A DNA stretch of 20,000 nucleotides from an uncultured virus (IMG/VR IMGVR_UViG_3300032323_003710) (IMGVR_UViG_3300032323_003710); one strand, 5' to 3'; positions 222 to 18,928 are shown, counted from the stretch's first letter. Numbers and translations are program-made. The notes: generated by a model not told the origin, from the letters alone.

Positions 222-662
222 TTACTTTTTTATTGTAATTATCAATTTTTTAATTTTACTATTATCTAAGGAACTTAAATCAAGATTATATCTATCATTA
301 TATTCTGTTGAAGGCCACTTTATTTTACGATTTCCATCTAAGTAAAGAATACCTCTTATACCATATTTCTCACTTAAAAATAATATAAATGGAATTAAAT
401 CATCTGAAAACTCATTAAAATCAAATACTTCACTCATAATTTGTAAACTATTTGTGAACTTCTCAACTACAATTGTATCATATCTACTATTTGATGGATA
501 TTTAATAGTAGTTTGAAAATTACTATCAGATTGTATTTGTGCTTCTCTTGATACTCTAACAACAAAATTGAAATTTTTATCAATTAAGTAAGCTAAATTA
601 TCATTACAGAATTGTTTTAATTCATCTGTTCTTGATGCTTCAAATAGTTTTAAATATTTCAT
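222..662 (-). CDS. Hypothetical protein with MKYLKLFE leader (putative head-packaged protein)
   Basis: ORF track gives 222..686. The start is moved to the ATG at 662, which begins the shared leader and avoids overlap with the upstream gene whose stop is at 664. Confidence 0.75.
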   Translation of the reverse strand: MKYLKLFEASRTDELKQFCNDNLAYLIDKNFNFVVRVSREAQIQSDSNFQTTIKYPSNSRYDTIVVEKFTNSLQIMSEVFDFNEFSDDLIPFILFLSEKYGIRGILYLDGNRKIKWPSTEYNDRYNLDLSSLDNSKIKKLIITIKK

Positions 663-3134: not shown

Positions 3135-3145
3135 TATATATTAAA
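3135..3145 (-). promoter_or_regulatory. TTTAATATATA motif upstream of the baseplate operon
   Basis: Exact copy 21 nt upstream of the ATG at 3113. Confidence 0.65.
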
Positions 3146-3223: not shown

Positions 3224-3234
3224 TTTAATATATA
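3224..3234 (+). promoter_or_regulatory. TTTAATATATA motif upstream of the signalling cassette
   Basis: Exact copy 21 nt upstream of the ATG at 3256, divergent from the copy at 3135-3145. Confidence 0.65.
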
Positions 3235-3255
3235 TAATAAAAAAAATTGTATTGG

Positions 3256-3984
3256 ATGAATGATACATTATTAGATGAGTTAATAAATCTTATTGATAAA
3301 CATGGCATTAAAGGATTTGTAGGTGTTTTACTTGTATATTCACTAATTTCTATATTTAAAAGTCAATGGTTTGGTAACCTTTTCTCAAAATTATCAGATA
3401 AATTTGTTGAAAGATTTATGAAAAGTGAGACAAAAGATGTTAGTATCAGAAAAATTAATGATTCTGATATAACTAATCATGATATATTTAACTATATTGA
3501 CTTTTGGACTTATTCTAAAGTTCCAACTTTTCAATTCTCAACAGAGTTTAGAACTGCAGTATTTAGAAAGTATTTAACTATCTATCTTAAAAACTACAAA
3601 AGAAACATTGAGAAATTTGTAGTAGATAAAAGTTATGAGACAATGGATGAACCACAAATACTTAAAACATTTCTTAACCTTATAAACCAAACTGTTTATG
3701 ACTATGAGAGAGAAATGAGTGATGTAGGTATCACTCCTATTATTATAGAGAAGATGAAAGTTAAGAACAATGATAACATATCTTTAACAATAGATTTAGT
3801 TGAAGGTGTTTGTTCATCACAGTTTTATAACTCTGAGAATAATTTATTAAAAATATATTCAATACTTAATATATTACTTACAGTATTAGAAAGTACTGTA
3901 AATAATGCTGAAAGTGTTTGTAATACTATCAATGGTCAATTAAAAGGATTGACTTTTGAAGGAAAAATAGAACCTGGTAAATAA
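3256..3984 (+). CDS. Membrane-anchored hypothetical protein (one N-terminal TM helix plus a soluble helical domain of about 200 aa)
   Basis: ORF track starts at TTG 3247; ATG 3256 is preferred. Hydrophobic segment GFVGVLLVYSLISIF. The stop overlaps the kinase ATG (TAATG). Confidence 0.75.
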   Translation: MNDTLLDELINLIDKHGIKGFVGVLLVYSLISIFKSQWFGNLFSKLSDKFVERFMKSETKDVSIRKINDSDITNHDIFNYIDFWTYSKVPTFQFSTEFRTAVFRKYLTIYLKNYKRNIEKFVVDKSYETMDEPQILKTFLNLINQTVYDYEREMSDVGITPIIIEKMKVKNNDNISLTIDLVEGVCSSQFYNSENNLLKIYSILNILLTVLESTVNNAESVCNTINGQLKGLTFEGKIEPGK

Positions 3985-5462
3985 TGGATATTATTAAAGA
4001 ATTAGAAAAGTATGTAAACGAATTAAAAAGAAAAGAGGATGAAATATCCAATAGAATGTATGCTATTAATCAGTCAAATGCAGTCATAGAGTTTGAACTA
4101 AATGGTACTATAAAATATGCAAATAAATTATTTTTAGAAACTATGGGTTATTCATCAGAAGATGAAGTTGTAGGAAAACATCATAGTATTTTTATGGAAG
4201 ATGATGTAAAAGATACTCAAGCATATTTTGATTTTTGGGAAAGATTAAATCAAGGTAAATTCTTTAGTGGAGAAATCAAAAGAAAGAAGAAAGATGGAAC
4301 TCTAATTTATTTACAAGCAACATATAATCCAATTATTGGTACTGATGGTAAAGCTTATAGTGTAATAAAAATTGCTACTGATATTACTAAAATTTTTAAT
4401 CAACAAATAGAGATTGAAAATAAAGAAAATGAAATTCGTAATAGAATGAATGCTATTAACCAGTCAAATGCTGTTATAGAGTTTGAACTTAATGGTACTA
4501 TAAAATATGCAAATGATTTATTTGTATCTACTATGGGTTATTCTTCACAGGATGAAATTGTAGGAAAACATCATAGTATTTTTATGGAAGATGATGTAAA
4601 AGATACTCAGGCATATTTTGATTTTTGGGAAAGATTAAATGAAGGTACATTCTTTAGTGGAGAGATTACAAGAAAGAAAAAAGATGGAACTTTAATCTAT
4701 TTACAAGCAACATATAATCCAATTATTTCGACTGATGGTAGAATATATAGTGTAATGAAAATTGCAACTGATATTACTAAAAGTTTTAATCAACAAATAG
4801 AGATTGAAAAGAAAAATACTTATCTAGAACATGCTGCCAAAATACTTAGACATGATATGCATAGTGGAATTAATACCTATATGCCACGTGGTTTAAGTTC
4901 ACTTGATCGTAGGATTACTGATGAACAACTGAAAGAGTTAAAAATTGATGCACCTCTTAAAATGATAAGAGAAGGTTTAAGACATACTCAAAAAGTTTAC
5001 AAAGGAGTTTATGAATTTACAAATCTTGTAAAGAAAGATGTTGTTTTAAATCGTTCAGATCTTAACCTAAAAGATATTCTTGAGGATTATCTTTCAGCAA
5101 CTGCATACAAACCTCAAGTTATTATAGAAGACTTAGGTATTGTATCAGTAAATGAAGCTCTTTTCTGTACTGCAATAGACAATTTAATTCGTAATGGACT
5201 TAAATACAATGATAGTGCATCAAAGTTTGTCAAAATTTATAAAAAAGATTATAATATATACATAGAAGATAATGGTAGAGGTATGTCCGCAGAGGAATTT
5301 AAACTTCTATCTCAACCTTACACTAGAAAAGAAGATCAAAAAGAATCTGGTACTGGATTAGGCCTTAACATATGTGTTGCTATACTTGAAGAACATAAAT
5401 TTAATATATCTTGTAGAAAGTTATCTCAAGGTACACAAATAAAAATAAAAATAAATAACTAA
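3984..5462 (+). CDS. Soluble sensor histidine kinase, PAS-PAS-HisKA-HATPase_c
   Basis: Two PAS/PAC repeats (AVIEFELNGTIKYAN..F..TMGYS..E.VGKHHSIF...FWERL..G.FFSGE..R.KKDG...YLQATYNPI...ATDIT). H-box ILRHDMHS (His290), N-box IDNLIRNGLKY, G1 IEDNGRGM, G2 GTGLGLNIC. No TM segment. Confidence 0.93.
   Translation: MDIIKELEKYVNELKRKEDEISNRMYAINQSNAVIEFELNGTIKYANKLFLETMGYSSEDEVVGKHHSIFMEDDVKDTQAYFDFWERLNQGKFFSGEIKRKKKDGTLIYLQATYNPIIGTDGKAYSVIKIATDITKIFNQQIEIENKENEIRNRMNAINQSNAVIEFELNGTIKYANDLFVSTMGYSSQDEIVGKHHSIFMEDDVKDTQAYFDFWERLNEGTFFSGEITRKKKDGTLIYLQATYNPIISTDGRIYSVMKIATDITKSFNQQIEIEKKNTYLEHAAKILRHDMHSGINTYMPRGLSSLDRRITDEQLKELKIDAPLKMIREGLRHTQKVYKGVYEFTNLVKKDVVLNRSDLNLKDILEDYLSATAYKPQVIIEDLGIVSVNEALFCTAIDNLIRNGLKYNDSASKFVKIYKKDYNIYIEDNGRGMSAEEFKLLSQPYTRKEDQKESGTGLGLNICVAILEEHKFNISCRKLSQGTQIKIKINN
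4031..4810 (+). repeat. Tandem direct duplication of a 390-nt (130-codon) PAS unit
   Basis: Identical anchors 390 nt apart: ATAGAATG at 4051/4441, TAGGAAAACATCATAGTATTTTTATGGAAGATGATGTAAAAGATACTCA at 4171/4561, and CAACAAATAGAGATTGAAAA at 4401/4791. Confidence 0.95.
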
Positions 5463-5464
5463 AA

Positions 5465-5896
5465 ATGATTGATTCTATTTTATTAGTGGACGATGAAAGC
5501 CTTTTCCACTTAGTATTTGAAGACGCTTGTAGTCTTTTAGATATATCTCTTTCTTTAGAATGTTTAGATAGCTCAGATGAAGCAGCTAGAACATTTGAAG
5601 ATTTATATCAAACAGGGAAAGCTAGACCAGAGTGTGTCTTTGTAGACCTAAATATAATTGGTTCCTCTTTTGATGGAATTGAACTAATTCGTAAAATAAC
5701 TGAGGACATGGGTAATGGAATGGTTATTGGAATCATCTCATCATCAGATGAACCAGAAGAACAAGCAAAAGCTAAAAAAGCTGGTGCACAATTTTGGATA
5801 ATAAAGTCTGATGAGATTGAACCACGTCTTGAAGATTTTGTAAAAGATTTTGATGGTTATAAAAATCATACAGCACCATTTAAAGTATATAAATAG
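5465..5896 (+). CDS. Single-domain response regulator (CheY-like receiver, no output domain)
   Basis: ILLVDD acidic pocket, VFVDLNI phospho-acceptor (Asp61), 'DGIELIRKI', IISSS switch residue, 'AKKAGAQFWIIKS' conserved Lys. 143 aa. Confidence 0.92.
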   Translation: MIDSILLVDDESLFHLVFEDACSLLDISLSLECLDSSDEAARTFEDLYQTGKARPECVFVDLNIIGSSFDGIELIRKITEDMGNGMVIGIISSSDEPEEQAKAKKAGAQFWIIKSDEIEPRLEDFVKDFDGYKNHTAPFKVYK

Positions 5897-5902
5897 TAAA
5901 TA

Positions 5903-6475
5903 ATGAAAATAGATAAAATAACTAGAGATACTTTACTACTAATTAAAAAAGAAAAGAAAGTTGTCCTTGAAGGAAATATACTAAAAATCCTTAAAGCAGA
6001 ACCAGGTGATGAGGAATTTGAGAAATATCTTTTAGATGCAACTGAAAAAGATAAAGAAGGTAGAAGACGTAGATTAGATGTAACTAAACAAGTTCAAGCT
6101 AGAAATGCAGAATTGTTAGAATCAGAAGTAGAGAATAAAAAACTATTAGAAGAACTAAATGTTGCTTTGGAAAATGCTGAGAAATTAAAGTCAGAAGCAG
6201 AACAAGCAAAGGATGATGCTTTGATGGATTTAGATATTCTACAAAAGAAGTCTCAGACAGAACTTATTAGTACAATTGTAAAAGTAGCTCTTTATGTAAT
6301 AATTGGTGTTGGACTAACAACAACAATTATGTATGCAATTGCTTTATTTACAGGTGCTGATACACAAATTATTGGTTCAACTTGGAGTAATATGTTTGGA
6401 ATACTTTTAACAAATGCCTTTTCAATTGTAGGTACAATTATGGGTGTTAAATATGCCAGTGAGAAAAAAGAATAA
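5903..6475 (+). CDS. Coiled-coil membrane protein with two C-terminal TM helices
   Basis: Charged N-terminal domain, then a long heptad region (QVQARNAELLESEVENKKLLEELNVALENAEKLKSEAEQAK). Hydrophobic segments VALYVIIGVGLTTTIMYAIALF and MFGILLTNAFSIVGTIMGV. Confidence 0.8.
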   Translation: MKIDKITRDTLLLIKKEKKVVLEGNILKILKAEPGDEEFEKYLLDATEKDKEGRRRRLDVTKQVQARNAELLESEVENKKLLEELNVALENAEKLKSEAEQAKDDALMDLDILQKKSQTELISTIVKVALYVIIGVGLTTTIMYAIALFTGADTQIIGSTWSNMFGILLTNAFSIVGTIMGVKYASEKKE

Positions 6476-6524
6476 AAAACAAATTGATTGTCAAAACAAT
6501 CAAAAAAAAACAAAAAAATATAAT

Positions 6525-6899
6525 ATGAAACATATAAAATTATTTGAAAATTTTAACAATGATATATCAGAAGAAATAGATAACTGGATAGAGGCTAATA
6601 ATGACTATATTAGTGCATCCTCTTTAGAAGATAAATTGAAAGAACTTATTGGAGATGATGATATAGAATCTTCTGAGACTATAGAGAAGAATTCTGGAGG
6701 TAATGAGTATGGAGAAAATTGGAGTACTAAAGTTATTTGTATAAAATACAAAGGACAAGAACTTATGAAGGTTTGTGTTAATTCCTCAGGTGTATATGAT
6801 TTTGGAAAGAATAGTATTATGTTTGAGGGACTTCCTAAAGACAAAGTTGTTGAAGCTGGATTTGGTACAAGATTTTTCTTTGATAAAAGTTTAGTTTAG
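6525..6899 (+). CDS. Hypothetical acidic protein with MKHIKLFENF leader
   Basis: ORF track gives 6444..6899. The start is moved to the ATG at 6525, which begins the shared leader; the upstream extension is a poly-A tract overlapping the previous gene. Confidence 0.75.
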   Translation: MKHIKLFENFNNDISEEIDNWIEANNDYISASSLEDKLKELIGDDDIESSETIEKNSGGNEYGENWSTKVICIKYKGQELMKVCVNSSGVYDFGKNSIMFEGLPKDKVVEAGFGTRFFFDKSLV

Positions 6900-6920
6900 A
6901 AATTAAATACAATATAAATA

Positions 6921-6952
6921 AAAAATACTCAAACTTTCATTTGAGTATTTTT
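6921..6952. terminator. Bidirectional intrinsic terminator-like hairpin
   Basis: Perfect 13-bp stem AAAAATACTCAAA-(CTTTCA)-TTTGAGTATTTTT between convergent genes ending at 6899 and 6977. Confidence 0.8.
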
Positions 6953-6976
6953 ATTTATTGGTAATTGCTCTCTTTT

Positions 6977-7522
6977 TTAATTCATTAAGTCATAAACATC
7001 TGTTGCAGTAAAATCAGGATCTGTAATTCCCAAATCATAATCAATATCTACACTAAAGTCTATATCATCTGCATCAAGTCTTCTTTTAATTGAATCATTT
7101 TTGTCTTCTCTTCTATGTAATCTACTTTCTCTTACATCTCTTGCAATGTTTAGATAAACAACAAAACATCCTTTTCTTAAATCTTCTGGTAAAGTTAATA
7201 ACTCTCCTGGTGTCATTATCAATACTTGTTTAGCCATAAACTCTTCTAATGTAATTCCATAGTACCAAGTCTCTGGTTCAGAATTTTCAGGTGTTACTTC
7301 AAATGATTGATAAGTCAAAAACTTATTATCTTCTATTAATTGCTTAAACTCTTCTTGTTTTATAAAATTGTAAGTAACTCCATGTTGTTCAAACTTTCTA
7401 ATAGGTCTTGTAGTACATTTAAGACAAGGTGTTAAACCTTTTTCAACTAACTTTCTCATTAAGAAATCTTTACCACTCCCAGATTTTCCAAGTATTATCA
7501 CTTTTTCTGTCTTAATTTGCAT
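6977..7522 (-). CDS. gmk: Guanylate kinase
   Basis: P-loop ILGKSGSGKD, GMP-binding signature TTRPIRKFEQHGVTYNFI..EEF, 'WYYGIT', and lid 'RLHRRED..DSIKRRL'. Confidence 0.88.
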   Translation of the reverse strand: MQIKTEKVIILGKSGSGKDFLMRKLVEKGLTPCLKCTTRPIRKFEQHGVTYNFIKQEEFKQLIEDNKFLTYQSFEVTPENSEPETWYYGITLEEFMAKQVLIMTPGELLTLPEDLRKGCFVVYLNIARDVRESRLHRREDKNDSIKRRLDADDIDFSVDIDYDLGITDPDFTATDVYDLMN

Positions 7523-7645: not shown

Positions 7646-7888
7646 TTAATATATTGGTTTGTAATTAGGATATATCCCTGGGTAGTTATAGTTTCCTTTT
7701 CTTACCTCAGCTGCTTCTGTATCAACTGCTAATTGGTAATCAGGATCTTCTTTTTCTTTATCTTTACAAGGAATACAAATTGTATCTGTATTAAATACAC
7801 TCATTGTAGTTTGATTATTTGTGGATTCACCACATCTTGGACAAACATCTACATTCATTGAGAATGCTTCAAATTTTTTTAATTTCAT
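7646..7888 (-). CDS. Small Zn-finger protein (CPRC...CIPC) with MKLKKFEAF leader
   Basis: Two CxxC pairs. The start is moved from 7915 to the ATG at 7888, which begins the shared leader. Confidence 0.75.
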   Translation of the reverse strand: MKLKKFEAFSMNVDVCPRCGESTNNQTTMSVFNTDTICIPCKDKEKEDPDYQLAVDTEAAEVRKGNYNYPGIYPNYKPIY

Positions 7889-8810
7889 AATTATTTTTAT
7901 TTTTGAATAAGTCAAAGAATTTCTTTACTTTACTAACTGGTTCTTCTTTTGGTATTTGTCTATCAAAAGTTAATTCTAATTGATATATTAATGGATTATC
8001 ATAATTTTCAATTACACTCTTATTAACTTCAACTAGTTCATCTAAACTCATAACTCTAATTGAATTATTCATACATACATACCAAACATAAATACGAGTT
8101 AATGGTTTATCATAAACATCAAGTATATATTCTTCTGCAACTGATAATGTATCATATATACTCTCTAATGAAACACATCCCTCAACTTTATTAGTTCTTT
8201 CTTTATCAATTCTTTTTAAGAAAACTCGGAATCCATCATGAAAATCTGGCACATAATCACCTGCACAAGGATGATTATATCTTAAAAAAGTGACATCTGT
8301 ATTAAAATCTAAATCAGTAATCTCAACAAATAAACTTTTAATATCTTCTTTATTAATATCTCTATTAACTAAAGACTCTGATATTTTTTCTTTGTTTTTA
8401 ATGTGTTTTACAACTCTTTCAATGTCTTCTTCTTGGTCTTCACCAGAATAAACATACATAGCTTCTTGTTCTGTAATTGGTTCAATCTTAATATATTCAA
8501 TCTTATTACCAAATGCACAATCTGCTTTGAGTTGTTCTTCTGTTACTTCACCATCTGAATCCATATAATTTCCATTTGGTAGTTTAACTACAATATGTGC
8601 AGGTTCACTATCATATCCAGTATATCCAGCTTCTTCATCCCAATCATCTTCTTTATGATAACCATTAACAATGTAAAGTGGATAACCATAAACTCTATGA
8701 AGTGCAATTGCATAAATATCACAATCACCACAATTAAAATTATGTTCACTAAAGTCATAATCATCTGTAAATCTTGACTCAAATAGTTTATATGATTGTA
8801 AATAATTCAT
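7869..8810 (-). CDS. Two-domain protein with a putative papain/transglutaminase-like Cys-His-Asp domain and MNYLQSYKLFES leader
   Basis: FNCGDCDIYAIALH (Cys30 at a helix start), PAHIVVKL (His72), NYMDSDG (Asp84). The C-terminal domain is unrecognised. Confidence 0.6.
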   Translation of the reverse strand: MNYLQSYKLFESRFTDDYDFSEHNFNCGDCDIYAIALHRVYGYPLYIVNGYHKEDDWDEEAGYTGYDSEPAHIVVKLPNGNYMDSDGEVTEEQLKADCAFGNKIEYIKIEPITEQEAMYVYSGEDQEEDIERVVKHIKNKEKISESLVNRDINKEDIKSLFVEITDLDFNTDVTFLRYNHPCAGDYVPDFHDGFRVFLKRIDKERTNKVEGCVSLESIYDTLSVAEEYILDVYDKPLTRIYVWYVCMNNSIRVMSLDELVEVNKSVIENYDNPLIYQLELTFDRQIPKEEPVSKVKKFFDLFKNKNNYEIKKI

Positions 8811-9223
8811 TATTTTTTAATAGTATTTATATTATCTTTTTCAAAGTTATCAAAACTCATAATCTTCTTTTCTTCACCAGAAGTTTTAGTATAGTCTTGT
8901 CTTTTAGATAAAACATTTTTTAAGTGTTTTAAGTCAAGTCTTTTCTCTCTTGATTTCTTACCAGTTCTTGCACCATGATTTGAACCCATTGCTGCAGGTA
9001 TTTTTTGGAATACTCTATTAGCTCCACCTGGATTATAAGCAACATCTAATGTTCCATCACTTACTTTGTTTGTACTTGATGCCCAGTTTGTACTTAATGT
9101 TTGTCCTGCTAAACCAGATGCTGGTCCACCAGAAACTCCTGTACTAACTGCTAAGCCACCTGTTGCAGATGTGCTTTCATTAGTCTCTTCCTCAAAATTT
9201 TCAAATAATATTAAATGTTTCAT
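8810..9223 (-). CDS. Gly/Ser-rich, probably disordered protein with MKHLILFENF leader
   Basis: 137-aa ORF with the promoter motif 4 nt upstream. Its stop overlaps the next ATG. Confidence 0.75.
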   Translation of the reverse strand: MKHLILFENFEEETNESTSATGGLAVSTGVSGGPASGLAGQTLSTNWASSTNKVSDGTLDVAYNPGGANRVFQKIPAAMGSNHGARTGKKSREKRLDLKHLKNVLSKRQDYTKTSGEEKKIMSFDNFEKDNINTIKK

Positions 9224-9238: not shown

Positions 9239-9281
9239 TTTTACAAATCAAAAGACAACTTCTATAATATATATGGTTATT

Positions 9282-9887
9282 ATGGACAGAATTAAATTAT
9301 TAGAAATTAAGAAACTATTTAAAGAACTTGATTATGTCCAATCTGATTTTGAATATAGAAGTGAAATTATAAGTGAAGCAGACACCAATTTTCTTAATGG
9401 TGTCAATAGTTTCCTTGATGACCACCCTGAATTAAAAGAATTATATGAAAGTAAAGTAAATGAAAGAGTAAATCAATTTATTCATACAGAATCTTATGAA
9501 CCTATAGAACAAACAGAGGATGGTTATGAAGAACTTGAAATAGTTTTAGATGATAAGTCACCTAAAGTAAAAAAACTATACAGAGAGATTGTTAAAATAA
9601 CTCATCCTGATAAATCTGATAAGAAATCACATAGTGATATTTATATCAAAGCAACTGAATATTATGATATGAATGATAAGATTGGTATATACAAGATTTG
9701 TACTGAACTAGATATAGATTATGATATTGAATATGAAGATAATATTGAAATACAAAAAAGAATAGATGATTTAAAAGGTAGAATAACCTTCTTAGAAAGT
9801 ACATTTACTTATCAATGGATTAGAATTGATGATGAGTTACAAAAAAATGAAATGATGATTAATTTTATTAAGATGAGAATACAATAA
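9282..9887 (+). CDS. J-domain (DnaJ-like) co-chaperone protein
   Basis: KVKKLYREIVKITHPDK...IYIKATEYY corresponds to helix II, HPD and helix III. The start is moved from 9066, which overlaps the opposite-strand gene, to ATG 9282 (alternative 9273), downstream of the motif variant TATAATATATA at 9263-9273. Confidence 0.75.
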   Translation: MDRIKLLEIKKLFKELDYVQSDFEYRSEIISEADTNFLNGVNSFLDDHPELKELYESKVNERVNQFIHTESYEPIEQTEDGYEELEIVLDDKSPKVKKLYREIVKITHPDKSDKKSHSDIYIKATEYYDMNDKIGIYKICTELDIDYDIEYEDNIEIQKRIDDLKGRITFLESTFTYQWIRIDDELQKNEMMINFIKMRIQ

Positions 9888-10523
9888 TTATAGTATGTTA
9901 ACTTTTATCTTTCTTTCTTTAAGTAAGTCTTGTAACTCTTCCTTTCTAAATGTTCTTTTGTAAATATCATTTTCTTTCTCTACATTCTGTAATACCCATT
10001 CATTACCATTAGTTACATTGTAAATATAATTCTCATCACCATCAACTAATTCAATAGTTCTTGATGTTAATTTATCATAGAACTTTTGTACATCACCATT
10101 TATTTTGTACAATTTTACATCTTCCCATTTGTTTAAAGTTTCATTCCAAGATTGGAATATTAAATAAGATGGATTTTCCAATTCATTTTTATCAATACCA
10201 TATATAAACATAAATCTACAAGGTTTATTCAGAAACGTCTGGAAATCATCTGACAATTTCACCTCAGATTTTTTAAGTGCAATACTTGACAATGAGTTAA
10301 TAAACTCTACATTGTCTTCTAAGTAGTCTAAATCTAATTTATCTTTATAATCTTCTGTAGGAAGTTTGAATGTATCAAACATATCAACTTCTTCTGCACC
10401 AATAGCTTCTAGTAATGCATCATGCCAAATTGTCAATGATTCTAATATATCAACCATTGTTTGAACACTTAAATCAACCAAAACAGATTCTTTGAAACTA
10501 ATATATTTTTTTAAATACTTCAT
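9888..10523 (-). CDS. Hypothetical acidic protein with MKYLKKYISFKES leader
   Basis: 211-aa ORF with the promoter motif at 10552-10562. Confidence 0.78.
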   Translation of the reverse strand: MKYLKKYISFKESVLVDLSVQTMVDILESLTIWHDALLEAIGAEEVDMFDTFKLPTEDYKDKLDLDYLEDNVEFINSLSSIALKKSEVKLSDDFQTFLNKPCRFMFIYGIDKNELENPSYLIFQSWNETLNKWEDVKLYKINGDVQKFYDKLTSRTIELVDGDENYIYNVTNGNEWVLQNVEKENDIYKRTFRKEELQDLLKERKIKVNIL

Positions 10524-10578: not shown

Positions 10579-11988
10579 ATGAAGTGGTTAAGAAAATTTG
10601 AATTATTTAAAGAATCAAAGGCATATTCTAACAAGAATCTTATATCTGAGATGTGTGTGAGTATGTTATTAATCAATAATACTTTTTTAGACTCAATTTT
10701 AGACAAAGGACTTAAAGCAAGATATAATGAGAACTCACAAGTTTTCCTTACAGATTTGAAAAACTTAATAATAGCTAAGAACAGATTTAAACTTGGGAAG
10801 TTTGAAGATAAATTATGTGTAGAAGATAATGAAACATCTAAAATAAACTTATCATTTGAAGGTATCAAATTTGATATAGAAAAAGATTGGAACTATTTAG
10901 TAAATGCAAGAACAATTGCAAGAAACATTATAGATAAATTATTACCAGAAGGTAAATTAGAATCTGATAACATCAAAGCAGTTTATTGGATTGGTCCTAA
11001 TAAAGATGATGACCACCAAGAAGATATAGTTGTAGAATTAAGAGATGGTCAACAATTCTCATTCTTCTTGAACAAAAATTTATCAGCTTCTAAATCAGCA
11101 TCATTCAATACATTTGCGGAAGACCTAATTGGTCAAGACTTAGAGTTATTATTCACAGAAGAATATTTAGTTAAATGGAATAAATTAACTCAAGAGTGGA
11201 TTAGAATATTATATGATAATGCAAATAAAGATATTCAATTTCATATTGAAAAGTTTATTGATCCAAAAAGGATTGATTCAATTGGTTACTTTGATTATTT
11301 TGATATAAGACATGGTGACTTGAAATATAAACACTTAGGTGAGTTCTTCAAAGTATTTGATAAAAACATTCTTAAATTTCAAGACTTACTTTTAGAGATA
11401 TGGAAAAACAGAGATACTTGTTTTATGGATCCTGAAAGAGTTTATCAAGAGTGGGAAGAAGTTAAGATAGTTGTTCTTAATTCTAAGATATTAGAAAACT
11501 TATTAACAACATCATTAAAATCTAATTTCCCTGATGATATTAAGAAATTGGATGATGGTTTTAAATTAGCTGAAGGAACAGTTAAAATGAAATTGTTTAA
11601 GACTTTAGTAGAGAAAATGGGTTGTTTAGAAAGACCTACATATTACTTAGGACAAAATGGCAACATATTTAATTTAATTCCTGAACGTCAATTTTTTAGA
11701 GATCATTATGATGACTTAACAATTAAGTTTGATTATCATGTTAACTTTAAGGTTAGTGAAGAAGAAGAAAACAATGACTTTAAGATTAAGATAAACTTAT
11801 TACTTGATGATGAGAAGTTAGTTGATATGGATATTGTAATTAGAATGACTAGTGAGATGTCTGGTAGATTAACAGCTAAGTATAAGTTTGATATATCAAG
11901 TCACTTCAACTATTTAGTGTCATTGAAAAGAGGTACTGCTCAAGAAGATGAAGAACAAGAAGATGATATACAAAATGATATAGAATAA
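10579..11988 (+). CDS. Hypothetical protein with MKWLRKFELFKES leader; possible degenerate PD-(D/E)xK nuclease-like fold
   Basis: 469-aa ORF with an acidic tail. The segment VYWIGPNKDDDHQEDIVVELRDGQQFSFFLNK resembles a restriction-like 'W.G...DI.V...DG...ISLK' core. The ORF is secure; the fold is tentative. Confidence 0.7.
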   Translation: MKWLRKFELFKESKAYSNKNLISEMCVSMLLINNTFLDSILDKGLKARYNENSQVFLTDLKNLIIAKNRFKLGKFEDKLCVEDNETSKINLSFEGIKFDIEKDWNYLVNARTIARNIIDKLLPEGKLESDNIKAVYWIGPNKDDDHQEDIVVELRDGQQFSFFLNKNLSASKSASFNTFAEDLIGQDLELLFTEEYLVKWNKLTQEWIRILYDNANKDIQFHIEKFIDPKRIDSIGYFDYFDIRHGDLKYKHLGEFFKVFDKNILKFQDLLLEIWKNRDTCFMDPERVYQEWEEVKIVVLNSKILENLLTTSLKSNFPDDIKKLDDGFKLAEGTVKMKLFKTLVEKMGCLERPTYYLGQNGNIFNLIPERQFFRDHYDDLTIKFDYHVNFKVSEEEENNDFKIKINLLLDDEKLVDMDIVIRMTSEMSGRLTAKYKFDISSHFNYLVSLKRGTAQEDEEQEDDIQNDIE

Positions 11989-12020
11989 ATAAAAAAGAGA
12001 CTAAAAGTCTCTTTTTTATT
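11988..12020. terminator. Bidirectional intrinsic terminator-like hairpin
   Basis: Perfect 15-bp stem AATAAAAAAGAGACT-(AAA)-AGTCTCTTTTTTATT between convergent stops at 11988 and 12019. Confidence 0.85.
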
Positions 12021-12399
12021 ACTCACCTGTTCCTTTATAAATTAATTCTATTGAACTTACTGGTATTTTATCAAAAGTAATTATACGTTTATCTTCTAAA
12101 TCAAAGTTAGGATCCACATACCACTTATTTTCAAGTTTAGAAGTATCTATTTTATAAATATCATCATCATATGTGGAATCAAACCAATCTTCTTTATCAT
12201 CACTATTAACTGCAAATATAACCTCACCATCAATTTTTGTATCAGATAACCAAGCTTCACTTTTTCCCTTTGGTATTAAACCTTCTTTAGTAATTTTATC
12301 TCTGAAAATTGGATTTGATGTATGATATAGATATTTATTTGGTTCTACTTCTACTAAATGACTATTTAAGAAACTTTCATACAATTTAATATATCTCAT
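12019..12399 (-). CDS. Putative ADP-ribosyltransferase-fold protein (Tpt1/KptA C-terminal-like) with MRYIKLYESF leader
   Basis: YLYHTS (His26)...I.KEGLIP...VIFA...IYKID...YVDPNF...IITFDKIPVSSIELI follows the LYHGT...I...GL.P...VYL...L.ID...IPP..I pattern of small NAD-using ART proteins. Confidence 0.65.
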   Translation of the reverse strand: MRYIKLYESFLNSHLVEVEPNKYLYHTSNPIFRDKITKEGLIPKGKSEAWLSDTKIDGEVIFAVNSDDKEDWFDSTYDDDIYKIDTSKLENKWYVDPNFDLEDKRIITFDKIPVSSIELIYKGTGE

Positions 12400-12446: not shown

Positions 12447-15400
12447 ATGAGTTTATCACCATTATTTCCACATTATGGACCATTAGGTTCTGGTCCTTAT
12501 TACGTATCACTTGCCATTCCTGGTGCACCAAGTGCAATTTCTAAATCATTAGGTTTGACTACACCTACAGGTATCTTACTTCCTAATGTTGATTATATCA
12601 CTAAGTTTAGTGAAGGTGAATTAGGTATTAGTGATACTTTTACTAAAGATATGATATTCAAAAATATGAATAATCCTATAGCATCAAAGAATGAAGCAAT
12701 ATTTAAACAATTTGCTAAACAAAATAAAATTGATGTTAGTGATATAAGTAAGTTTAAGAAAGGTAATAAATTTGTGATGCCTAAAGACCAAATTAAAATT
12801 CCTTCTGAGAATGATTTAACTGGTTTTAAAGCATTTGAGAGAACTACTTTACAATCTATATTTGAAACACAAAAACCTTATATGGAGATTGTTAAAACAT
12901 CTACAGAAACTATAGCAAGGGTAGAAGATATTATTGCAAGAGTTATGCCATTCTTTGGTAATCCTTTAACCACTAAATCAAGAGTTCCTACAAAGAATAA
13001 AGGTGGAGGTGGTGGACCTAAAGCTATTGGTTTTAAAAAAGCAGAACAATTAAAAAAAGAACTTAATGGACTTCAAGCCTTAATTAAAAAAGGTATGAAT
13101 GCTTCCACTACAAATAATACTGGTGGTGCTACTTCATCTAATCCAAATAATGTAGAATTTACTCAACCAAGTGCAGATAGTAACACAGCTGGTTTTACAA
13201 GTACTCGTTGGCAAGTAATATCTACAGTTTATTCTACAGGTATATTTAATCCTAACTTAGATTATGATTTTAAATATATTAATTTACCTGCAGATGAACC
13301 AACACCAATTGTACCAGAAGATGATATTGATTTGAGTAATGGTGATCCATATGAAAACTTTAAACCAAAATCATTAATATTTGGTATTTATAACTCTAAA
13401 GGAGAAGCAATTGACCCTGCAGAATATTTAAAAACTATTGGTATGAATGGTAATGATAAAACAGAAGTTGAAACACCATTTAAAAGAGCTGATTGGTTAT
13501 TGAGATCACCAAAGTGGAAAATAACAGAAGGTTTTGAGTGGCCTACTTTTGCAGAACCTAATTATGTTTGGATTAATGGCTTAGGTCAGACAAGGATAAG
13601 TGATAAGAAACCATTAACAACACCATCTACAAATCCTGTACAAAATGCACTTGGTGGATATGCTATAAAAAAATATAGAGCAGGTCAAAAAGATATATTA
13701 ACAGGTTTACCTGCTATAAAAGGTGATCCTGTTATAAAAAGTTTTAAGAAGATAGATGAAACATCATATAGAAACGAATTTAGTGATATAATTGATATAG
13801 GTCTTAATTCAAATAGTACACTTACAAGTGAGTTTAAGAAACAAGTAAATACTGATGTAATGAGTAGAATAGATATTAATACTCAATTACAAATAAACTA
13901 TTTATATAGTCATTCTAAAATATCAGTTTATAAAAAAGTAAATAATAAAGAAGCTTTCCCTGAGATGATGAGAAAGTCTTACAAGCCTTATGAGATATAT
14001 TCACCAGAAGCTGCCAAAGATCCTTTATTGAGTGCTGCTGCAATTGCCAAGGGTAAGAAACCTGGTATGATTTGGGTTGAACCTGATTCAGACTATGACA
14101 TGAAAGTAATTCGTATTGATCCTATATCTACAATTGAATATGCAGAAGTACAAGGTGGTCCTGAAACAGAAACAAGTATAACAAAGTTTGTTAAGAATAG
14201 AGTTAGATTTGATATGTCAAATGGTGGAACATTTAGTTTTAGTTTATCTAAGAATGGTGCAACTGCCGATATTTTAGAAAATATACAAGAATTCACATTT
14301 GAGAACTGGAATTATGAGAATCCAAAATTAGTAAATACAAATACTTTTACTGTAAGTATGTGGAGTAAAGATGTTCCTAAAAGGTTTACTGATGGTAGAA
14401 ACTATTATAGTTTTAGAGTTGATAGACCAAGATTTACTATAAATGATTTCTTAGCTAAGTTAGGTGTAACACAATCAACTCCTACATTGACACAACAATT
14501 TAATCAAATACCTACTTATGATACTTATAGTATTAGAAAAACTGGTGGTGAGTGGTATTTTTCAACAACCGCAAACTACCTGAAAAATGGTATTAATAAG
14601 TTAGGAGATGGTACAACTATATTTACAGAAGATGGAATTGTTAAGAGATGGTATCAATTATATGAAAAACAACTTACTGGTCCTGCTGTTGGCTTCAATT
14701 TACCTGCATTTGGTATAGCAAGAACAATGACATATAATTATGATACTGATAAGTTTGATGTAACTGATAAAACAATTCCATTATATAGATTAAAGATTGA
14801 CCAAAAATATAGTTCATCTAAAATTATTGATCCATCTCAGATAACTAATAATAAACTAACAACTACAGAATTATTTGTAAATGATCCACTTTGGTATGGT
14901 CATGGTTCTTCTATAGATCCACAAACTTTAGGTATAATAAAAAGATATGCTTTAACTGATTTAGATACAGAATCTTACTACATTGTTGAAGGTGTTTTAA
15001 GAAAAGAAAATCCATTTGAAGATGATGAGTTAGGTAATAGGAAAAGACGTAGTGGAGGTGGAGGTGGAAAATCTTGGTATAGAATTGGAGATGCAATAGG
15101 TGCTACTAGAGTATTTGCCAGTTTATTGTCTTCAATATTTTCTAAGTTAATTCCAAAAATTATTAAGTTACTTTCATTATTTCAGAATCCTTTTAACTTT
15201 ATCATTGATATACTCTCTGAAAAGATGGGTAAGAATGTTAATTTCTTAACAAAGGAATCATTATCTACATTTGCAGATGCTGCTAAATTAAGAGATAGAA
15301 TAAAGGGACAAGTTGGTGGTATAGATAATATCAAAAAACAAATTGATGATGTTAGACTAACTGCTAAGAATAAATCTGATTTTATATTAGCTCAGGCAGA

Positions 15401-17000
15401 TGCTACAAAACCAGAAGAAATAAGTGGTGCAAGACAAGAAGCAAATAAAATACAATTACAAGCAGAGAAGACTGCAGGTAAATTAGAAAAGACATTGAAT
15501 AAAAAGAATGACCTTGTTAATAAATTAAAAGATAAGTTTAAAAAATCAATATTGGCAAACTATGTTCATGTTGATGATAACTTAGATTTTATATTTCCAC
15601 CTGGTGGTGCTGCAACAGTTCCTTTCTCTTTGTTTGGTAAAGACTTATCATTTGGTGCATCATTAGAACTTAATAATATTCCTAAAAAACCACCTGTTAA
15701 ATTAATATTTCCAAGTGGGTTAGGTGGTATATTTAAGAATGTTCAGTTCTTAACAAGTAAATCTAAACCAAAACCAGTAACTCCAGTTGTTCAACCAACA
15801 ATAGCAGATATAATTAAACAAGAAACTAGTAATATAAAAGCCAATGTTAAAGATACAATAAATACAGGTGATAAAAAATTACCATATAGTAATACATTAT
15901 TTAATAGTAATGTTAGTGATAATGTACAAGTTAAGTTTTCAGATGGTACAACTAAAACAATACCAAGTTCATCATTACAAGAATTTGTAGATACTAATAA
16001 AGATAAGTATGACTTCATATATGTAACTGAATATGTTGATGGTATATTAAAAGAAGTAGATGAGTTAATAAAAACAGGAACCCCTGAGAGTTTAGCAATT
16101 GCCAAAGAGAAATTAGATGATGCTAAGACTAAAAGTTTAGTTAATACACCAAAAGGTTTAGCCAATGCTTCTAATAGTGCAATAGATGATAAAATAAAAG
16201 AATTAAATGATAAGAATTCTAATTTAGTTAAGAATACTCAACCATTACTCAAAACTCTGTTAGGATTCATTACATTCCCTATTAAGATTATAGCTGATAT
16301 AATTAAATGGTTAATGGATTTCTTTATGAGTTTAACAAATCCAATGACATTAGCAAGTAAGATGAAAGAGTTTTTATCTTTCAAATGGATATTACAATTC
16401 TTTACACCAACTGGTATACTAGCAATATTTGGATTAAAGTTTCAACCATTAGTTTTGATTCCTTATGCAGCATCAGCTGCTGCAGCCACTGGTAAGTTTG
16501 GTGGTTCTGTTGCAGGAATGGCGGATATGAGTAAGTATATTAATTTAGGATTCATTCCTACTTTACCAACTTATTCTGCAGATCAGTATAAGAATTTATT
16601 GAAAGGTGTTCAACCATTTAGATTACTAACTATCTTTCAAATGATGGAGAAGTTTATCAATGGTGTTATAGATTTTATTTGGTCTTTATTTGGGATTGAA
16701 GCTTTAATTCCAGCACCACATATTAATATGTCTTCAATGTATAGTTCAAATCAATCATTGAAACCAGAAGATATTCAGAAAGTTGTTGATGGTGCAGTAC
16801 CACAGGGTAATACAACACCTAAGGTTTCTGATGGTTTGAATACACCAACAAATAATAGTAGTCAATTGAATCCTGTTATACAGACATTTGTATATGAGGT
16901 TAAGTTACCTGATGGAACTACAAAAGCATTTTTGAATAGAGATGAGTTAGATATTTATGTACAAAGTAATAGTGATATAAACTTTGACTTTACTTTTTAG
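12447..17000 (+). CDS. Very large hypothetical protein, probably virion structural
   Basis: 1517-aa uninterrupted ORF with poly-Gly linkers, a beta-rich centre, a coiled coil and several amphipathic or hydrophobic helices in the C-terminal third. The structural role is inferred from size, promoter and neighbourhood. Confidence 0.75.
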   Translation: MSLSPLFPHYGPLGSGPYYVSLAIPGAPSAISKSLGLTTPTGILLPNVDYITKFSEGELGISDTFTKDMIFKNMNNPIASKNEAIFKQFAKQNKIDVSDISKFKKGNKFVMPKDQIKIPSENDLTGFKAFERTTLQSIFETQKPYMEIVKTSTETIARVEDIIARVMPFFGNPLTTKSRVPTKNKGGGGGPKAIGFKKAEQLKKELNGLQALIKKGMNASTTNNTGGATSSNPNNVEFTQPSADSNTAGFTSTRWQVISTVYSTGIFNPNLDYDFKYINLPADEPTPIVPEDDIDLSNGDPYENFKPKSLIFGIYNSKGEAIDPAEYLKTIGMNGNDKTEVETPFKRADWLLRSPKWKITEGFEWPTFAEPNYVWINGLGQTRISDKKPLTTPSTNPVQNALGGYAIKKYRAGQKDILTGLPAIKGDPVIKSFKKIDETSYRNEFSDIIDIGLNSNSTLTSEFKKQVNTDVMSRIDINTQLQINYLYSHSKISVYKKVNNKEAFPEMMRKSYKPYEIYSPEAAKDPLLSAAAIAKGKKPGMIWVEPDSDYDMKVIRIDPISTIEYAEVQGGPETETSITKFVKNRVRFDMSNGGTFSFSLSKNGATADILENIQEFTFENWNYENPKLVNTNTFTVSMWSKDVPKRFTDGRNYYSFRVDRPRFTINDFLAKLGVTQSTPTLTQQFNQIPTYDTYSIRKTGGEWYFSTTANYLKNGINKLGDGTTIFTEDGIVKRWYQLYEKQLTGPAVGFNLPAFGIARTMTYNYDTDKFDVTDKTIPLYRLKIDQKYSSSKIIDPSQITNNKLTTTELFVNDPLWYGHGSSIDPQTLGIIKRYALTDLDTESYYIVEGVLRKENPFEDDELGNRKRRSGGGGGKSWYRIGDAIGATRVFASLLSSIFSKLIPKIIKLLSLFQNPFNFIIDILSEKMGKNVNFLTKESLSTFADAAKLRDRIKGQVGGIDNIKKQIDDVRLTAKNKSDFILAQADATKPEEISGARQEANKIQLQAEKTAGKLEKTLNKKNDLVNKLKDKFKKSILANYVHVDDNLDFIFPPGGAATVPFSLFGKDLSFGASLELNNIPKKPPVKLIFPSGLGGIFKNVQFLTSKSKPKPVTPVVQPTIADIIKQETSNIKANVKDTINTGDKKLPYSNTLFNSNVSDNVQVKFSDGTTKTIPSSSLQEFVDTNKDKYDFIYVTEYVDGILKEVDELIKTGTPESLAIAKEKLDDAKTKSLVNTPKGLANASNSAIDDKIKELNDKNSNLVKNTQPLLKTLLGFITFPIKIIADIIKWLMDFFMSLTNPMTLASKMKEFLSFKWILQFFTPTGILAIFGLKFQPLVLIPYAASAAAATGKFGGSVAGMADMSKYINLGFIPTLPTYSADQYKNLLKGVQPFRLLTIFQMMEKFINGVIDFIWSLFGIEALIPAPHINMSSMYSSNQSLKPEDIQKVVDGAVPQGNTTPKVSDGLNTPTNNSSQLNPVIQTFVYEVKLPDGTTKAFLNRDELDIYVQSNSDINFDFTF

Positions 17001-17241: not shown

Positions 17242-17454
17242 TTAAAAGTTAGTTACTACTAAAAGTATTAAAAAAACAAATGCTTTAGATATTAAACGAT
17301 TACCTGTAGGTTTATCATTAACTAAAGCTTTGTTTACTTTTTGTAATAAATACTTTCTAACCATTTCAGTTCTAGGACATGATGGTTTTGTGAGTTTACA
17401 AGTAGTAAAGTACCAGTTTACTAAAAGTATTGAATCAATCTCTGTTTTTCTCAT
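17242..17454 (-). CDS. Small hypothetical protein with hydrophobic C-terminus
   Basis: 70-aa ORF that fills otherwise empty space. An exact promoter motif in the correct orientation lies at 17478-17488. Confidence 0.5.
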   Translation of the reverse strand: MRKTEIDSILLVNWYFTTCKLTKPSCPRTEMVRKYLLQKVNKALVNDKPTGNRLISKAFVFLILLVVTNF

Positions 17455-17477
17455 ATAATTGTGAAACTTTATTGATG

Positions 17478-17488
17478 TATATATTAAA
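17478..17488 (-). promoter_or_regulatory. TTTAATATATA motif
   Basis: Exact copy 23 nt upstream of the ATG at 17454. Confidence 0.55.
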
Positions 17489-17504
17489 AAAAAATATCAT
17501 TTTT

Positions 17505-18584
17505 ATGAAAATCAAAAAAAATAACTCTCTAAAAGTCAATATATCTAAAGAAGATGCTAACATAAATGACTTTCTTTATTGTTGGGATAAATTTGGTGAC
17601 AGACCAAATAAAATAACTATCTATAGTAGTTTTGTAAAAGATGGGTTTAACACTGTTATAAGTGAATATAATGAATATAAGAACTCTAATATTGAGTTAA
17701 TACCTGCAGATGAATTTGATATTATTAATGATAAGAGTATTGTTAAAATAAATGATAACATTTATATCTCTTATCATATTTTAGATAGAGAAAGTGAAAA
17801 TTCTTTCATACATGAAGTAATTTTCTTATATAAATCAGAAAAAGATTTAGAAAAAATAAATGAAATAACTGAAAGTTTAGGAAAATATAACATAGAACTT
17901 GAAGAAGGTGATGATTCTTATAAACTAAATACAGTATTTATTAGTCCAAATGGTATTGAAGTTGAACCTATTGAAAAAATTGAATTAGATGAATCAATAG
18001 AATTATTCTATAATGAAGAAACATTTAAGTCAATAAATAAACTAAATAAAACTCTTAAAAAGAGTAATAAGGGTTTAACTATATTATATGGTGAAAGAGG
18101 AACAGGTAAAACAAGTATGATTAATTATATTTGTGATAAGTTGAATAGAATGGTTATTTATATCCCAAATAGTATGTTGGATGTAACTATTAACTCACCA
18201 GAGTTCAGAACTTTTTTAAGAAAATATCCTAAACCTATAATAGTTCTAGATGACTGTGAGATGATCTTTAATGAACTATATTCAAAATCTAATATATATG
18301 TCAATAACATTTTACAAATGGTTGATGGATTATTGGCAGACTCAATAGAATTAAATATTATTGCAATATTTAATGTTGATGATGAAGATGAGATTGATCA
18401 TGTTTTGTTGGAATGTAATTCATTAATTGACTTGATTGAGTTTGAATTATTGAACCAAGAAGAATCAAATGATTTGGCCAAACACTTAGGTTCTAAGAAA
18501 AAATATAAAAACAAAAACAAATTGGTTGATATAATTAAGAATAACAACAGTGTAAAAGGTTATAAAAAAATAGGATTAAACTAA
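17505..18584 (+). CDS. AAA+ family ATPase with degenerate arginine-finger region
   Basis: Walker A ILYGERGTGKT, Walker B IIVLDDCE, 'NILQMVDGLL', sensor-1 'IIAIFN'. The start is moved from TTG 17430 to ATG 17505. Confidence 0.85.
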   Translation: MKIKKNNSLKVNISKEDANINDFLYCWDKFGDRPNKITIYSSFVKDGFNTVISEYNEYKNSNIELIPADEFDIINDKSIVKINDNIYISYHILDRESENSFIHEVIFLYKSEKDLEKINEITESLGKYNIELEEGDDSYKLNTVFISPNGIEVEPIEKIELDESIELFYNEETFKSINKLNKTLKKSNKGLTILYGERGTGKTSMINYICDKLNRMVIYIPNSMLDVTINSPEFRTFLRKYPKPIIVLDDCEMIFNELYSKSNIYVNNILQMVDGLLADSIELNIIAIFNVDDEDEIDHVLLECNSLIDLIEFELLNQEESNDLAKHLGSKKKYKNKNKLVDIIKNNNSVKGYKKIGLN

Positions 18585-18928
18585 TGACAATATCAGAATT
18601 AAGTGATGAAGATGTATTAAACTTTTTGATGACAAGTGAGTTCACAGATGATTACTCACCTGCTGAGTTAAAGTATCTTTTAGTTAAATGGCGTTATTTC
18701 TACAGATTATCACAAGGAAGAAATGAACAAATTAAAGTTAAAGGTGAGGGTGATATACAACAATTAGAAAATGAGAAAAATATACTGAATAATACAATTA
18801 GTCAGTTATCATCAAGAGTTTTAGAAAAAGATGATTTAATAAATTCTCTTAGAAATAGAAAATTAACCATGAAAGAAAGATGGTCAGGAAAAATAATATT
18901 AACAAAAGATGAAGATAAACGATTATAA
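18584..18928 (+). CDS. Hypothetical coiled-coil protein
   Basis: 114 aa, TAATG-coupled to the ATPase, with heptad stretch IQQLENEKNILNNTISQLSSRVLEKDDLINSL. Confidence 0.75.
   Translation: MTISELSDEDVLNFLMTSEFTDDYSPAELKYLLVKWRYFYRLSQGRNEQIKVKGEGDIQQLENEKNILNNTISQLSSRVLEKDDLINSLRNRKLTMKERWSGKIILTKDEDKRL

Follow-up and report, generated by a model that had tools for sequence, protein, structure and literature searches.

We analysed a 20-kb stretch of DNA from an uncultured virus (IMGVR_UViG_3300032323_003710), which is referred to below, in its full length, as the window. The genes at 3224..6475, all on the + strand, had been described in an earlier note as a signalling cassette of four genes. 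A promoter-like motif (TTTAATATATA, 3224..3234, +) precedes open reading frame 1 (ORF1; 3256..3984, +), which encodes 242 amino acids (aa) forming one N-terminal transmembrane (TM) helix and a helical bundle. It is followed by a soluble PAS-PAS histidine kinase of 492 aa (3984..5462, +), a stand-alone CheY-like receiver of 143 aa (5465..5896, +) and ORF4, a membrane hairpin protein of 190 aa (5903..6475, +). Reading the junctions directly confirmed the tight spacing of these genes. The ORF1 stop overlaps the kinase start (TAATG), and the kinase-receiver and receiver-ORF4 gaps are 2 and 6 nucleotides (nt). However, comparison across viral lineages suggested that the functional unit consists of three genes, the kinase, the receiver and ORF4 (the trio). 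We consider it highly probable that these form one module with ORF4 as its output.

The kinase and the receiver

In the kinase, PAS-A spans residues ~20-140, PAS-B ~150-270 and the HATPase_c domain 394-490. The last was matched by PF02518 with 55.6 bits against a cutoff of 26.4, and two PAS stretches were matched by Pfam too. The H-box histidine, His290 (codon 4851-4853, +), lies within ILRHDMHSGINTYMPRG, which was at least 95% conserved in an alignment of 64 rows (the window and 63 lineage representatives). The N, G1 and G2 boxes (DNLIRNGLKYN, DNGRG and GTGLGL) reached the same level at most of their positions. The kinase motifs listed in the earlier note are thus intact and conserved across lineages. 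No TM helix was predicted, and the window's kinase appears to be fully soluble, unlike about 45 of the 63 related kinases, which are membrane-anchored by predicted N-terminal TM helices.

The two PAS domains are near copies of each other. A tandem duplication of 390 nt lies within the gene (4027-4326 versus 4417-4716, 89% nt identity), and PAS-A and PAS-B share 87.6% aa identity over 129 residues. In the nearest relative (locus L083), it is the second PAS that both copies resemble, so the first PAS was recently replaced or converted. The closest solved structures to both PAS domains were MmoS-type 3ewk, NifL 2gj3 and Aer 8dik/31cj (E 4e-14 to 7e-9), which are flavin-binding PAS sensors of the redox-sensing kind; flavin binding by the window's kinase would be a conjecture from these matches. 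The top specific NCBIfam model was a NifL-type PAS, at a score far below that model's cutoff. Reading of the window's PAS sequence found no LOV cysteine motif.

The receiver matched Response_reg (PF00072) with 34.0 bits, just over the cutoff of 30.2. Its phospho-acceptor Asp61 (codon 5645-5647, +), together with D9, D10, S92-94 and K114, was invariant in 65 sequences, and the receiver residues named earlier are therefore also intact. With 60 invariant columns and 67-92% identity across loci, the receiver is the best conserved of the trio proteins. Its family comprises 3862 metagenomic clusters of 78-251 aa, the best 120 of which were 142-149 aa long. No output domain was found in the 143 aa of the window's receiver or in these best 120 relatives (longer fused forms were not searched). 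The best solved relative was a bacterial single-domain regulator (3ilh, E 4e-8).

Conservation of the trio and exclusion of ORF1

In IMG/VR, the kinase had 170 confirmed relatives and ORF4 had 252, and 80 were kept from each set. We compared 12 window proteins with 159 loci by tblastn, and collapse at 95% identity left 66 lineages. The kinase, the receiver and ORF4 occurred in the same order and on the same strand in 63 of the 66, so that the synteny looked for on the strength of the earlier note was present for these genes. Two of the exceptions were cut by contig ends. The third (L084/L094) kept ORF4 without kinase and receiver, as would be expected of an effector with optional regulators.

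Small variations were seen around the fixed order. Two kinase genes were present in five lineages of the 66, and two tandem kinases preceded one receiver in L004/L041, L015/L016, L022/L107, L027/L087, L054 and L160, sometimes separated by a gene of 202-218 aa, an arrangement in which two inputs may feed a single output. In two lineages, an extra gene of 165-167 aa, for which no known family was found, was located between the receiver and ORF4 (L150:5500-6001, L154:1027-1530).

The upstream flank behaved differently. The window is phage DNA, because it carries a baseplate wedge subunit gene (909-2633, -; phrog_219, E 6e-24) and its whole neighbourhood shows synteny with two huge phages, both uncultured, LR745206.1 (634,780 bp) and LR756502.1 (642,428 bp); the phage origin given in the earlier note was thereby confirmed. 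Homologues of ORF1 were found at 2 GenBank and 9 IMG/VR loci, all of them beside the baseplate wedge gene, and at none of the 11 did the trio lie within 5 kb. Conversely, none of 157 trio-bearing IMG/VR loci had ORF1, the baseplate gene or the guanylate kinase gene of the window nearby. Because the 11 ORF1 loci all lack the trio and the 157 trio loci all lack ORF1, ORF1 is one of the clade's core genes and stands outside the signalling module. Five near-complete relatives that carry ORF1 (465-642 kb) gave no match to the ORF4 or receiver profiles, while the same search returned one copy in each of four known carriers as a positive control.

The cassette as first described, with all four genes in one unit and either flanking membrane protein, ORF1 included, as the receiver's target, would account for the TAATG overlap, for the TM helix of ORF1 and for the position of all four genes behind one promoter-like motif. 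Against these stand the mutually exclusive distributions of ORF1 and the trio, and the kinase start, which marks an insertion boundary (3974-4001, described below). The earlier note had itself named a failure of the flanking membrane genes to co-occur with kinase and receiver as refuting its proposal, and for ORF1 this failure was seen. We regard the four-gene cassette as very improbable.

The call for ORF1 starts at 3247, and comparison with homologues indicated that the ATG at 3256 is probably the true start. One TM helix was predicted at residues 19-37. The protein matched phrog_18926, of unknown function, and the AlphaFold2 (AF2) model had a predicted local distance difference test score (pLDDT) of 83, with no Foldseek match in the PDB at E <= 0.001. 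We also considered ORF1 as an endolysin with a signal-anchor and rejected this, since both a lysozyme-like family and a lysozyme-like fold were absent (Pfam, PHROG, Foldseek).

ORF4 and its sensor fusions

The AF2 model of ORF4, built from a 67-sequence alignment, had a pLDDT of 85.9. It shows a small N-terminal domain, a helix (37-150) running into the first TM segment (TM1), a loop of four residues and a second helix (155-188) containing TM2. The two-TM coiled-coil protein described downstream of the receiver is therefore present, as the TM scan also indicated. In this model, residues ~1-60 would form an input domain, and the coiled coil, predicted to be cytoplasmic, would be continuous with TM1. 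The positive-inside rule gave an N-in/C-in topology with the tail KYASEKKE, and most holins are shorter than these 190 aa. The invariant columns cluster in TM2, and W161-K183 is the most conserved part of the protein.

ORF4 matched no PHROG, NCBIfam or PADLOC family and no Pfam family above its cutoff, the sub-threshold match being DUF2207_C (17.4 bits versus 33). The family is nevertheless large, with more than 7045 metagenomic clusters. A protein atlas returned only its own viral clusters, which were 100% viral; the name 'GLE1-like' given there is an automatic label, which we set aside as uninformative. Among 185,579 species genomes, the ORF4 profile matched at only 8 loci, all in metagenome-assembled genomes (MAGs) of eight different phyla. 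These are probably mis-binned phage contigs and give no host signal. No tblastn match to ORF4 or to the receiver was found among 50,697 GenBank phage records, in which the kinase had PAS-level matches only, in 3 records. By its atlas clusters and genome matches, ORF4 is a virus-only protein.

This distribution bears on the idea that a host-derived two-component pair was acquired by chance and is carried as a passenger or decaying moron with no phage-specific role. The bacterial origin of the receiver's best solved relative and the accessory nature of the genes would fit such a history. It is hard to reconcile, however, with thousands of viral relatives that have intact motifs, with a gene order fixed in nearly all lineages, and with the near absence of ORF4 outside viruses. 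We therefore give this explanation hardly any weight.

Longer relatives of ORF4 numbered 805 proteins at E <= 1e-5. The best 120 of them were 340-458 aa long, and nearly all joined PAS or GAF domains to the C-terminal 56-72% of ORF4 (for example L165:7230-8345, L166:1947-3104 and L177:4983-6026). By Pfam, PAS or GAF was present and HATPase_c absent in these three examples. In the PAS-fusion loci, of which 80 of 176 confirmed were kept (46 groups), there were no receiver matches (0/80). At four of the 8 MAG loci, PAS-PAS and the coiled coil and hairpin of ORF4 are likewise encoded by one gene. The fusions share their sensor repertoire with the trio kinases, which carry PAS, PAS-PAS, GAF-PAS, GAF-PAS-PAS, or TM helices only.

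In the fusions, approximately the first 55-80 residues of ORF4 are replaced. Because this part gives way to sensors, the N-terminal domain of ORF4 may be the receiver's input site. Because the sensors are attached straight to the hairpin with no kinase or receiver, ORF4 is likely to be the relay's output. The earlier proposal that a flanking membrane protein is the relay target is thus supported for ORF4 by the fusions and falls away for ORF1, which is absent from trio loci. A complex prediction for the receiver with ORF4 residues 1-125 gave a median score of 0.27 against a mark of 0.32, with no controls run, and counts as evidence neither way.

Alternatively, ORF4 might be a membrane scaffold or co-sensor of the kinase, and the receiver might have a different target, of phage or host origin, for example an adaptor in motility, transcription or proteolysis like those of bacterial single-domain receivers. 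Single-domain receivers have diverse partners, and the conservation of the window's receiver, the highest in the trio, would fit several binding surfaces. However, the fusions combine sensor and hairpin without kinase or receiver, which requires the hairpin to be active in its own right. ORF4 also survives without its regulators in L084/L094, and its near-invariant TM2 goes far beyond what an anchor needs. For these reasons, we judge a mere scaffolding role quite improbable and retain ORF4 as the output of the module.

Lysis genes around the trio

All ORFs of the loci were clustered and the neighbours annotated, and we counted the distance from the trio to the nearest gene of an endolysin cluster. 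An endolysin lay within one gene of the trio in 19 of the 66 lineages, within two genes in 26, within four in 35 and anywhere in the flanks in 37. It occupied slot -1 in 16/60 and slot +1 in 8/66. Among approximately 230 slots seven or more genes away, only one held an endolysin (at -7), and there was none farther out. The endolysins near the trio belong to five unrelated families (GH19, Peptidase_M15_3, Amidase_2, Phage_lysozyme and phrog_3000), and the same neighbourhoods hold Phage_holin_4_1 genes and small two-TM genes.

The sensor fusions were nearly always part of lysis cassettes. An endolysin-family match was located within 500 nt in 69 of the 80 PAS-fusion loci and within 2 kb in 73, and 42 of the 46 groups had an endolysin within 2 kb. 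Two of three GAF-fusion loci had a GH19 endolysin within ~1.2 kb. We also noted, downstream of fusion-type lysis cassettes, small proteins with an N-terminal TM helix or signal peptide and a coiled coil (L166:4141-4813, L177:6054-6538), which look spanin-like by architecture only.

These neighbourhoods led us to lean slightly towards sensor-gated lysis timing as the output of the module. The output suggested in the earlier note thus fits the gene neighbourhoods of the relatives, but not that of the window, and several observations weigh against it. No relative of an endolysin or holin was found by Pfam or PHROG in the 20-kb window. The nearest trio-bearing relatives (L003/L083, L084/L094 and L085/L086) have no endolysin beside the trio, and in 29 of the 66 trio lineages none was recognised in the fetched flanks. 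ORF4 matched no described holin family (Pfam, PHROG) and no PDB structure at E <= 0.001 with Foldseek. Many loci have separate holin candidates, either Phage_holin_4_1 or small two-TM proteins, so ORF4 need not permeabilise the membrane itself. The evidence from neighbourhoods is indirect, as membrane-protein genes may be clustered for other reasons. In addition, the relay is dispensable, given the five near-complete relatives without receiver and ORF4, and no Pfam model of the HisKA family matched the H-box region of the kinase.

Several of these points would suit a module in which relay and ORF4 form one unit and the hairpin acts on the membrane to some end unrelated to lysis timing. It might exclude superinfecting phages, regulate membrane potential or ion flux while the host is taken over, or block a membrane-based host defence. 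The evidence for the module itself, the conserved trio and the sensor fusions, is the same for this reading. This reading also agrees with the place of the trio away from lysis genes, both here and in the trio-bearing phages closest to the window, and with the lineages in whose flanks no endolysin was recognised. The module is also accessory and mobile, as exclusion and counter-defence genes often are. However, such a purpose does not account for the endolysins within 500 nt of most PAS fusions, or for the sharp position bias around the trio. No PADLOC family matched ORF1, the kinase, the receiver, ORF4 or the neighbouring ORF5 at E <= 0.01, which also speaks against it, and we discarded a known anti-phage defence system on the same result. 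A membrane purpose unrelated to lysis timing therefore seems unlikely to us.

The inserted block in the window

DNA similarity between the window and relatives that lack the trio ends at 3974-4001 and resumes at 6963-6983. Because it stops at 3974-4001, the kinase start marks one insertion boundary. Within the block, 4417-6479 was 93% identical to L083, whose trio occupies a different locus, and 6196-6957 was 92.8% identical to L084. The trio and a passenger gene thus appear to be a block of ~3 kb inserted between ORF1 and the guanylate kinase gene (6977-7522, -; phrog_1815, E 2e-30). The passenger, ORF5 (6525..6899, +; 124 aa), starts with an N-terminal motif of the MKHIKLFENF type. Among the 159 loci it was found only in L084, with 97% identity, and a contig of run X2, from another lake sample, joins 6479 to 6963 with 7 letters between them, so that the end of ORF4 meets that of the guanylate kinase gene, and lacks it. 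ORF5, present in some strains and absent in others, lies outside the module.

An AT-rich hairpin (6914..6958) lies between the convergent genes of ORF5 and guanylate kinase. Its predicted stability was -16.2 kcal/mol (z -4.48), and none of 200 shuffles was as stable. It closes the block in a terminator-like manner. Its 36-50 nt are found directly 3' of ORF4 in L083, L085 and L094, in the opposite orientation, and since the same nt follow ORF4 there, the hairpin travels with the block. A few genes downstream of the trio, L083 has an HNH/homing endonuclease gene (L083:7164-8231, -; phrog_559, E 2e-55), a possible agent of the mosaicism around the block.

The arrangement is not chimeric or an assembly artefact, because contigs from independent lake samples bridge both junctions. 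One from another lake sample spans 3624-4097 with zero differences, and others span 5649-7483, 6450-7019 and 6450-7476. The concern that the contig might be bacterial or chimeric at this point was thus settled in favour of a sound contig. Contig joints linking the PAS region to the 3' part of ORF4 (for example 4333 to 6359) were also seen. They probably come from co-occurring fusion-type phages and were not used.

The promoter-like motif TTTAATATATA is enriched in the window. With at most one mismatch allowed, we counted 19 copies, 8 of them exact, where 7.3 +/- 2.6 were expected; the other 11 have a single mismatch. None of 200 shuffles equalled that number. Seven of the 8 exact copies sit, in the correct orientation, in gaps just 5' of an ORF start; the eighth, at 150 (-), has no called ORF downstream. 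A divergent pair lies ahead of the baseplate operon (3135-3145, -) and ahead of ORF1 (3224, +), and the motif is indeed common to the signalling genes and the structural operon, as the earlier note had claimed. The late expression deduced there was not supported, the shared motif being its sole basis; the promoters might be called late on account of their position ahead of structural genes. Lacking an exact copy of the motif, the inserted block is probably transcribed from the one in front of ORF1. One-mismatch copies occur at 5250 and 5400, within the 3' end of the kinase gene. The copy at 5400 is kept in L083, but the DNA there is 93% identical anyway.

The window adds an instance of the module that is detached from lysis genes and placed inside a clade otherwise without it. 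It also adds mapped insertion boundaries and a soluble kinase with a freshly duplicated PAS.

A model for the relay

From these features, we propose the following sequence of events. Upon an intracellular cue, the cytoplasmic PAS-PAS kinase would autophosphorylate on His290. The phosphoryl group would then pass from His290 to Asp61 of the single-domain receiver, and the phosphorylated receiver would act on the N-terminal domain of ORF4. Most likely, the ORF4 hairpin would in turn modulate holin-dependent permeabilisation of the membrane in an antiholin- or co-holin-like manner, and lysis timing would follow the state of the infected cell. In the phage of the window, the trio and its passenger would have moved away from the lysis genes to their present place between ORF1 and guanylate kinase. 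In this scheme, phosphotransfer and contact between receiver and ORF4 are inferred, as are the cue, the direction in which the hairpin acts and, for the phage of the window, the connection with lysis.

In its most general form, the model is tentative, with somewhat less than an even chance of being right. It describes a lysis clock of a kind not reported before and widespread in aquatic jumbo and mega phages, in which a virus-only hairpin gates the holin and is wired to cytoplasmic PAS or GAF sensors either by fusion or by a phosphorelay. The same guarded estimate covers, jointly with it, the proposal that the relay module moves between genomic sites and that, in some lineages, a single receiver is served by two kinases.

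The moment of lysis determines burst size and the fitness of the phage. If the lysis clock exists, the decision to burst would be taken from the redox, energy or nucleotide state of the cell. Large phages would sense conditions inside the host cell and respond to them post-translationally at the membrane, through a complete phosphorelay of their own with interchangeable sensor domains. The modular design of sensor, relay and hairpin would also make a compact and testable signalling switch. Both families, that of ORF4 and that of the receiver, abound in metagenomes from lakes and the sea. With thousands of clusters in each, and no tblastn match to either protein in the GenBank phage records, they may belong to an extensive and ecologically relevant area of phage biology still to be explored.

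Other features of the window

The window has a G+C content of ~27%, and the stretch was detected in metagenomes of lakes and other fresh waters (20 rows, 12 studies, the source possibly among them). Besides the genes above, Pfam and PHROG identified an RNA 2'-phosphotransferase-like protein (12019-12399, -; phrog_5470, E 9e-7), a weak DnaJ-like J-domain protein (9270-9887, +) and an AAA ATPase (17430-18584, +). An ORF of 1517 aa (12447-17000, +) has a one-mismatch copy of the promoter-like motif in front of it and matched no Pfam or PHROG family. With its Gly-rich and hydrophobic stretches, it may be a large virion or tail protein. We considered the ORF at 18909-20000 as a member of the relatives' cluster 25 (TM and coiled coil) and rejected it, because the look is similar but homology is absent.

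Seven otherwise unrelated window proteins share the N-terminal motif MK[YHW][LI]K..F[EK], examples being MKYLKLFE, MKHIKLFENF and MKHLILFENFEE. Their genes are located at 222-662 (-), 6525-6899 (+), 7869-8810 (-), 8810-9223 (-), 9888-10523 (-), 10579-11988 (+) and 12019-12399 (-). The variable genes after ORF1 in LR745206 and LR756502 have the same kind of start. The motif resembles the short leader that directs T4 internal proteins to the capsid, which is N-terminal and is cleaved after (L/I)-x-E. The proteins that bear it could be packaged or injected.

Comparison with known systems

To our knowledge, lysis inhibition in T-even phages is the only well-studied case of phage lysis adjusted to a signal. 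In the literature searched, we found no paper describing a phage two-component system tied to lysis genes. Receivers without an output domain are familiar from bacteria, where those of CheA-CheY-FliM and DivJ/PleC-DivK act by binding a partner protein. Unlike CheA, the window's kinase is of class I, with a HATPase_c domain and the H-box in a presumed dimerisation helix of its own, and neither FliM nor DivL is related to ORF4, the presumed partner.

A bacterial kinase-regulator pair with a link to lysis is LytSR of staphylococci and Bacillus, which works with the holin/antiholin-like proteins LrgAB and CidAB. The likeness lies in the connection of a two-component pair to holin-like membrane proteins and cell lysis. 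However, LytR is a DNA-binding transcription regulator of the LytTR type, whereas the window's receiver has no second domain and its genes are phage-borne. ORF4 in turn belongs to a separate, virus-only family with no Pfam counterpart, and so differs from LrgAB and CidAB.

Many of the PAS fusions to the C-terminal part of ORF4 were named methyl-accepting chemotaxis proteins (MCPs) by JGI. They resemble MCPs in combining a sensor domain, a long coiled coil and membrane helices. However, by Pfam they have no MCP signalling domain, and their topology is reversed, with sensor and coiled coil in the cytoplasm and the hairpin at the C-terminus. We therefore rejected the label as an annotation artefact.

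A kinase-independent receiver variant, different from the receiver of the window, is described in PMC7824862. Environmental sensing is tied to lysis outside the T-even phages in the lysis inhibition of the Vibrio phage ICP1 (PMC7182436). Other proteins are at work there, and the parts of that paper considered name no two-component components.

In the lysis inhibition of T4, the holin T is paired with the antiholins RI, in the periplasm, and RIII, in the cytoplasm (PMC11413866, PMC8385771). The resemblance to the proposed lysis clock is that lysis time is tuned to a sensed signal through an extra protein acting on the holin, as would be the case here, and that RIII acts from the cytoplasmic side, as the input domain of ORF4 would. 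The two systems are unrelated in sequence and fold. In T4, the signal is superinfection, detected in the periplasm without a phosphorelay, whereas the system of the window has cytoplasmic PAS/GAF sensors, with a kinase and a receiver in between.

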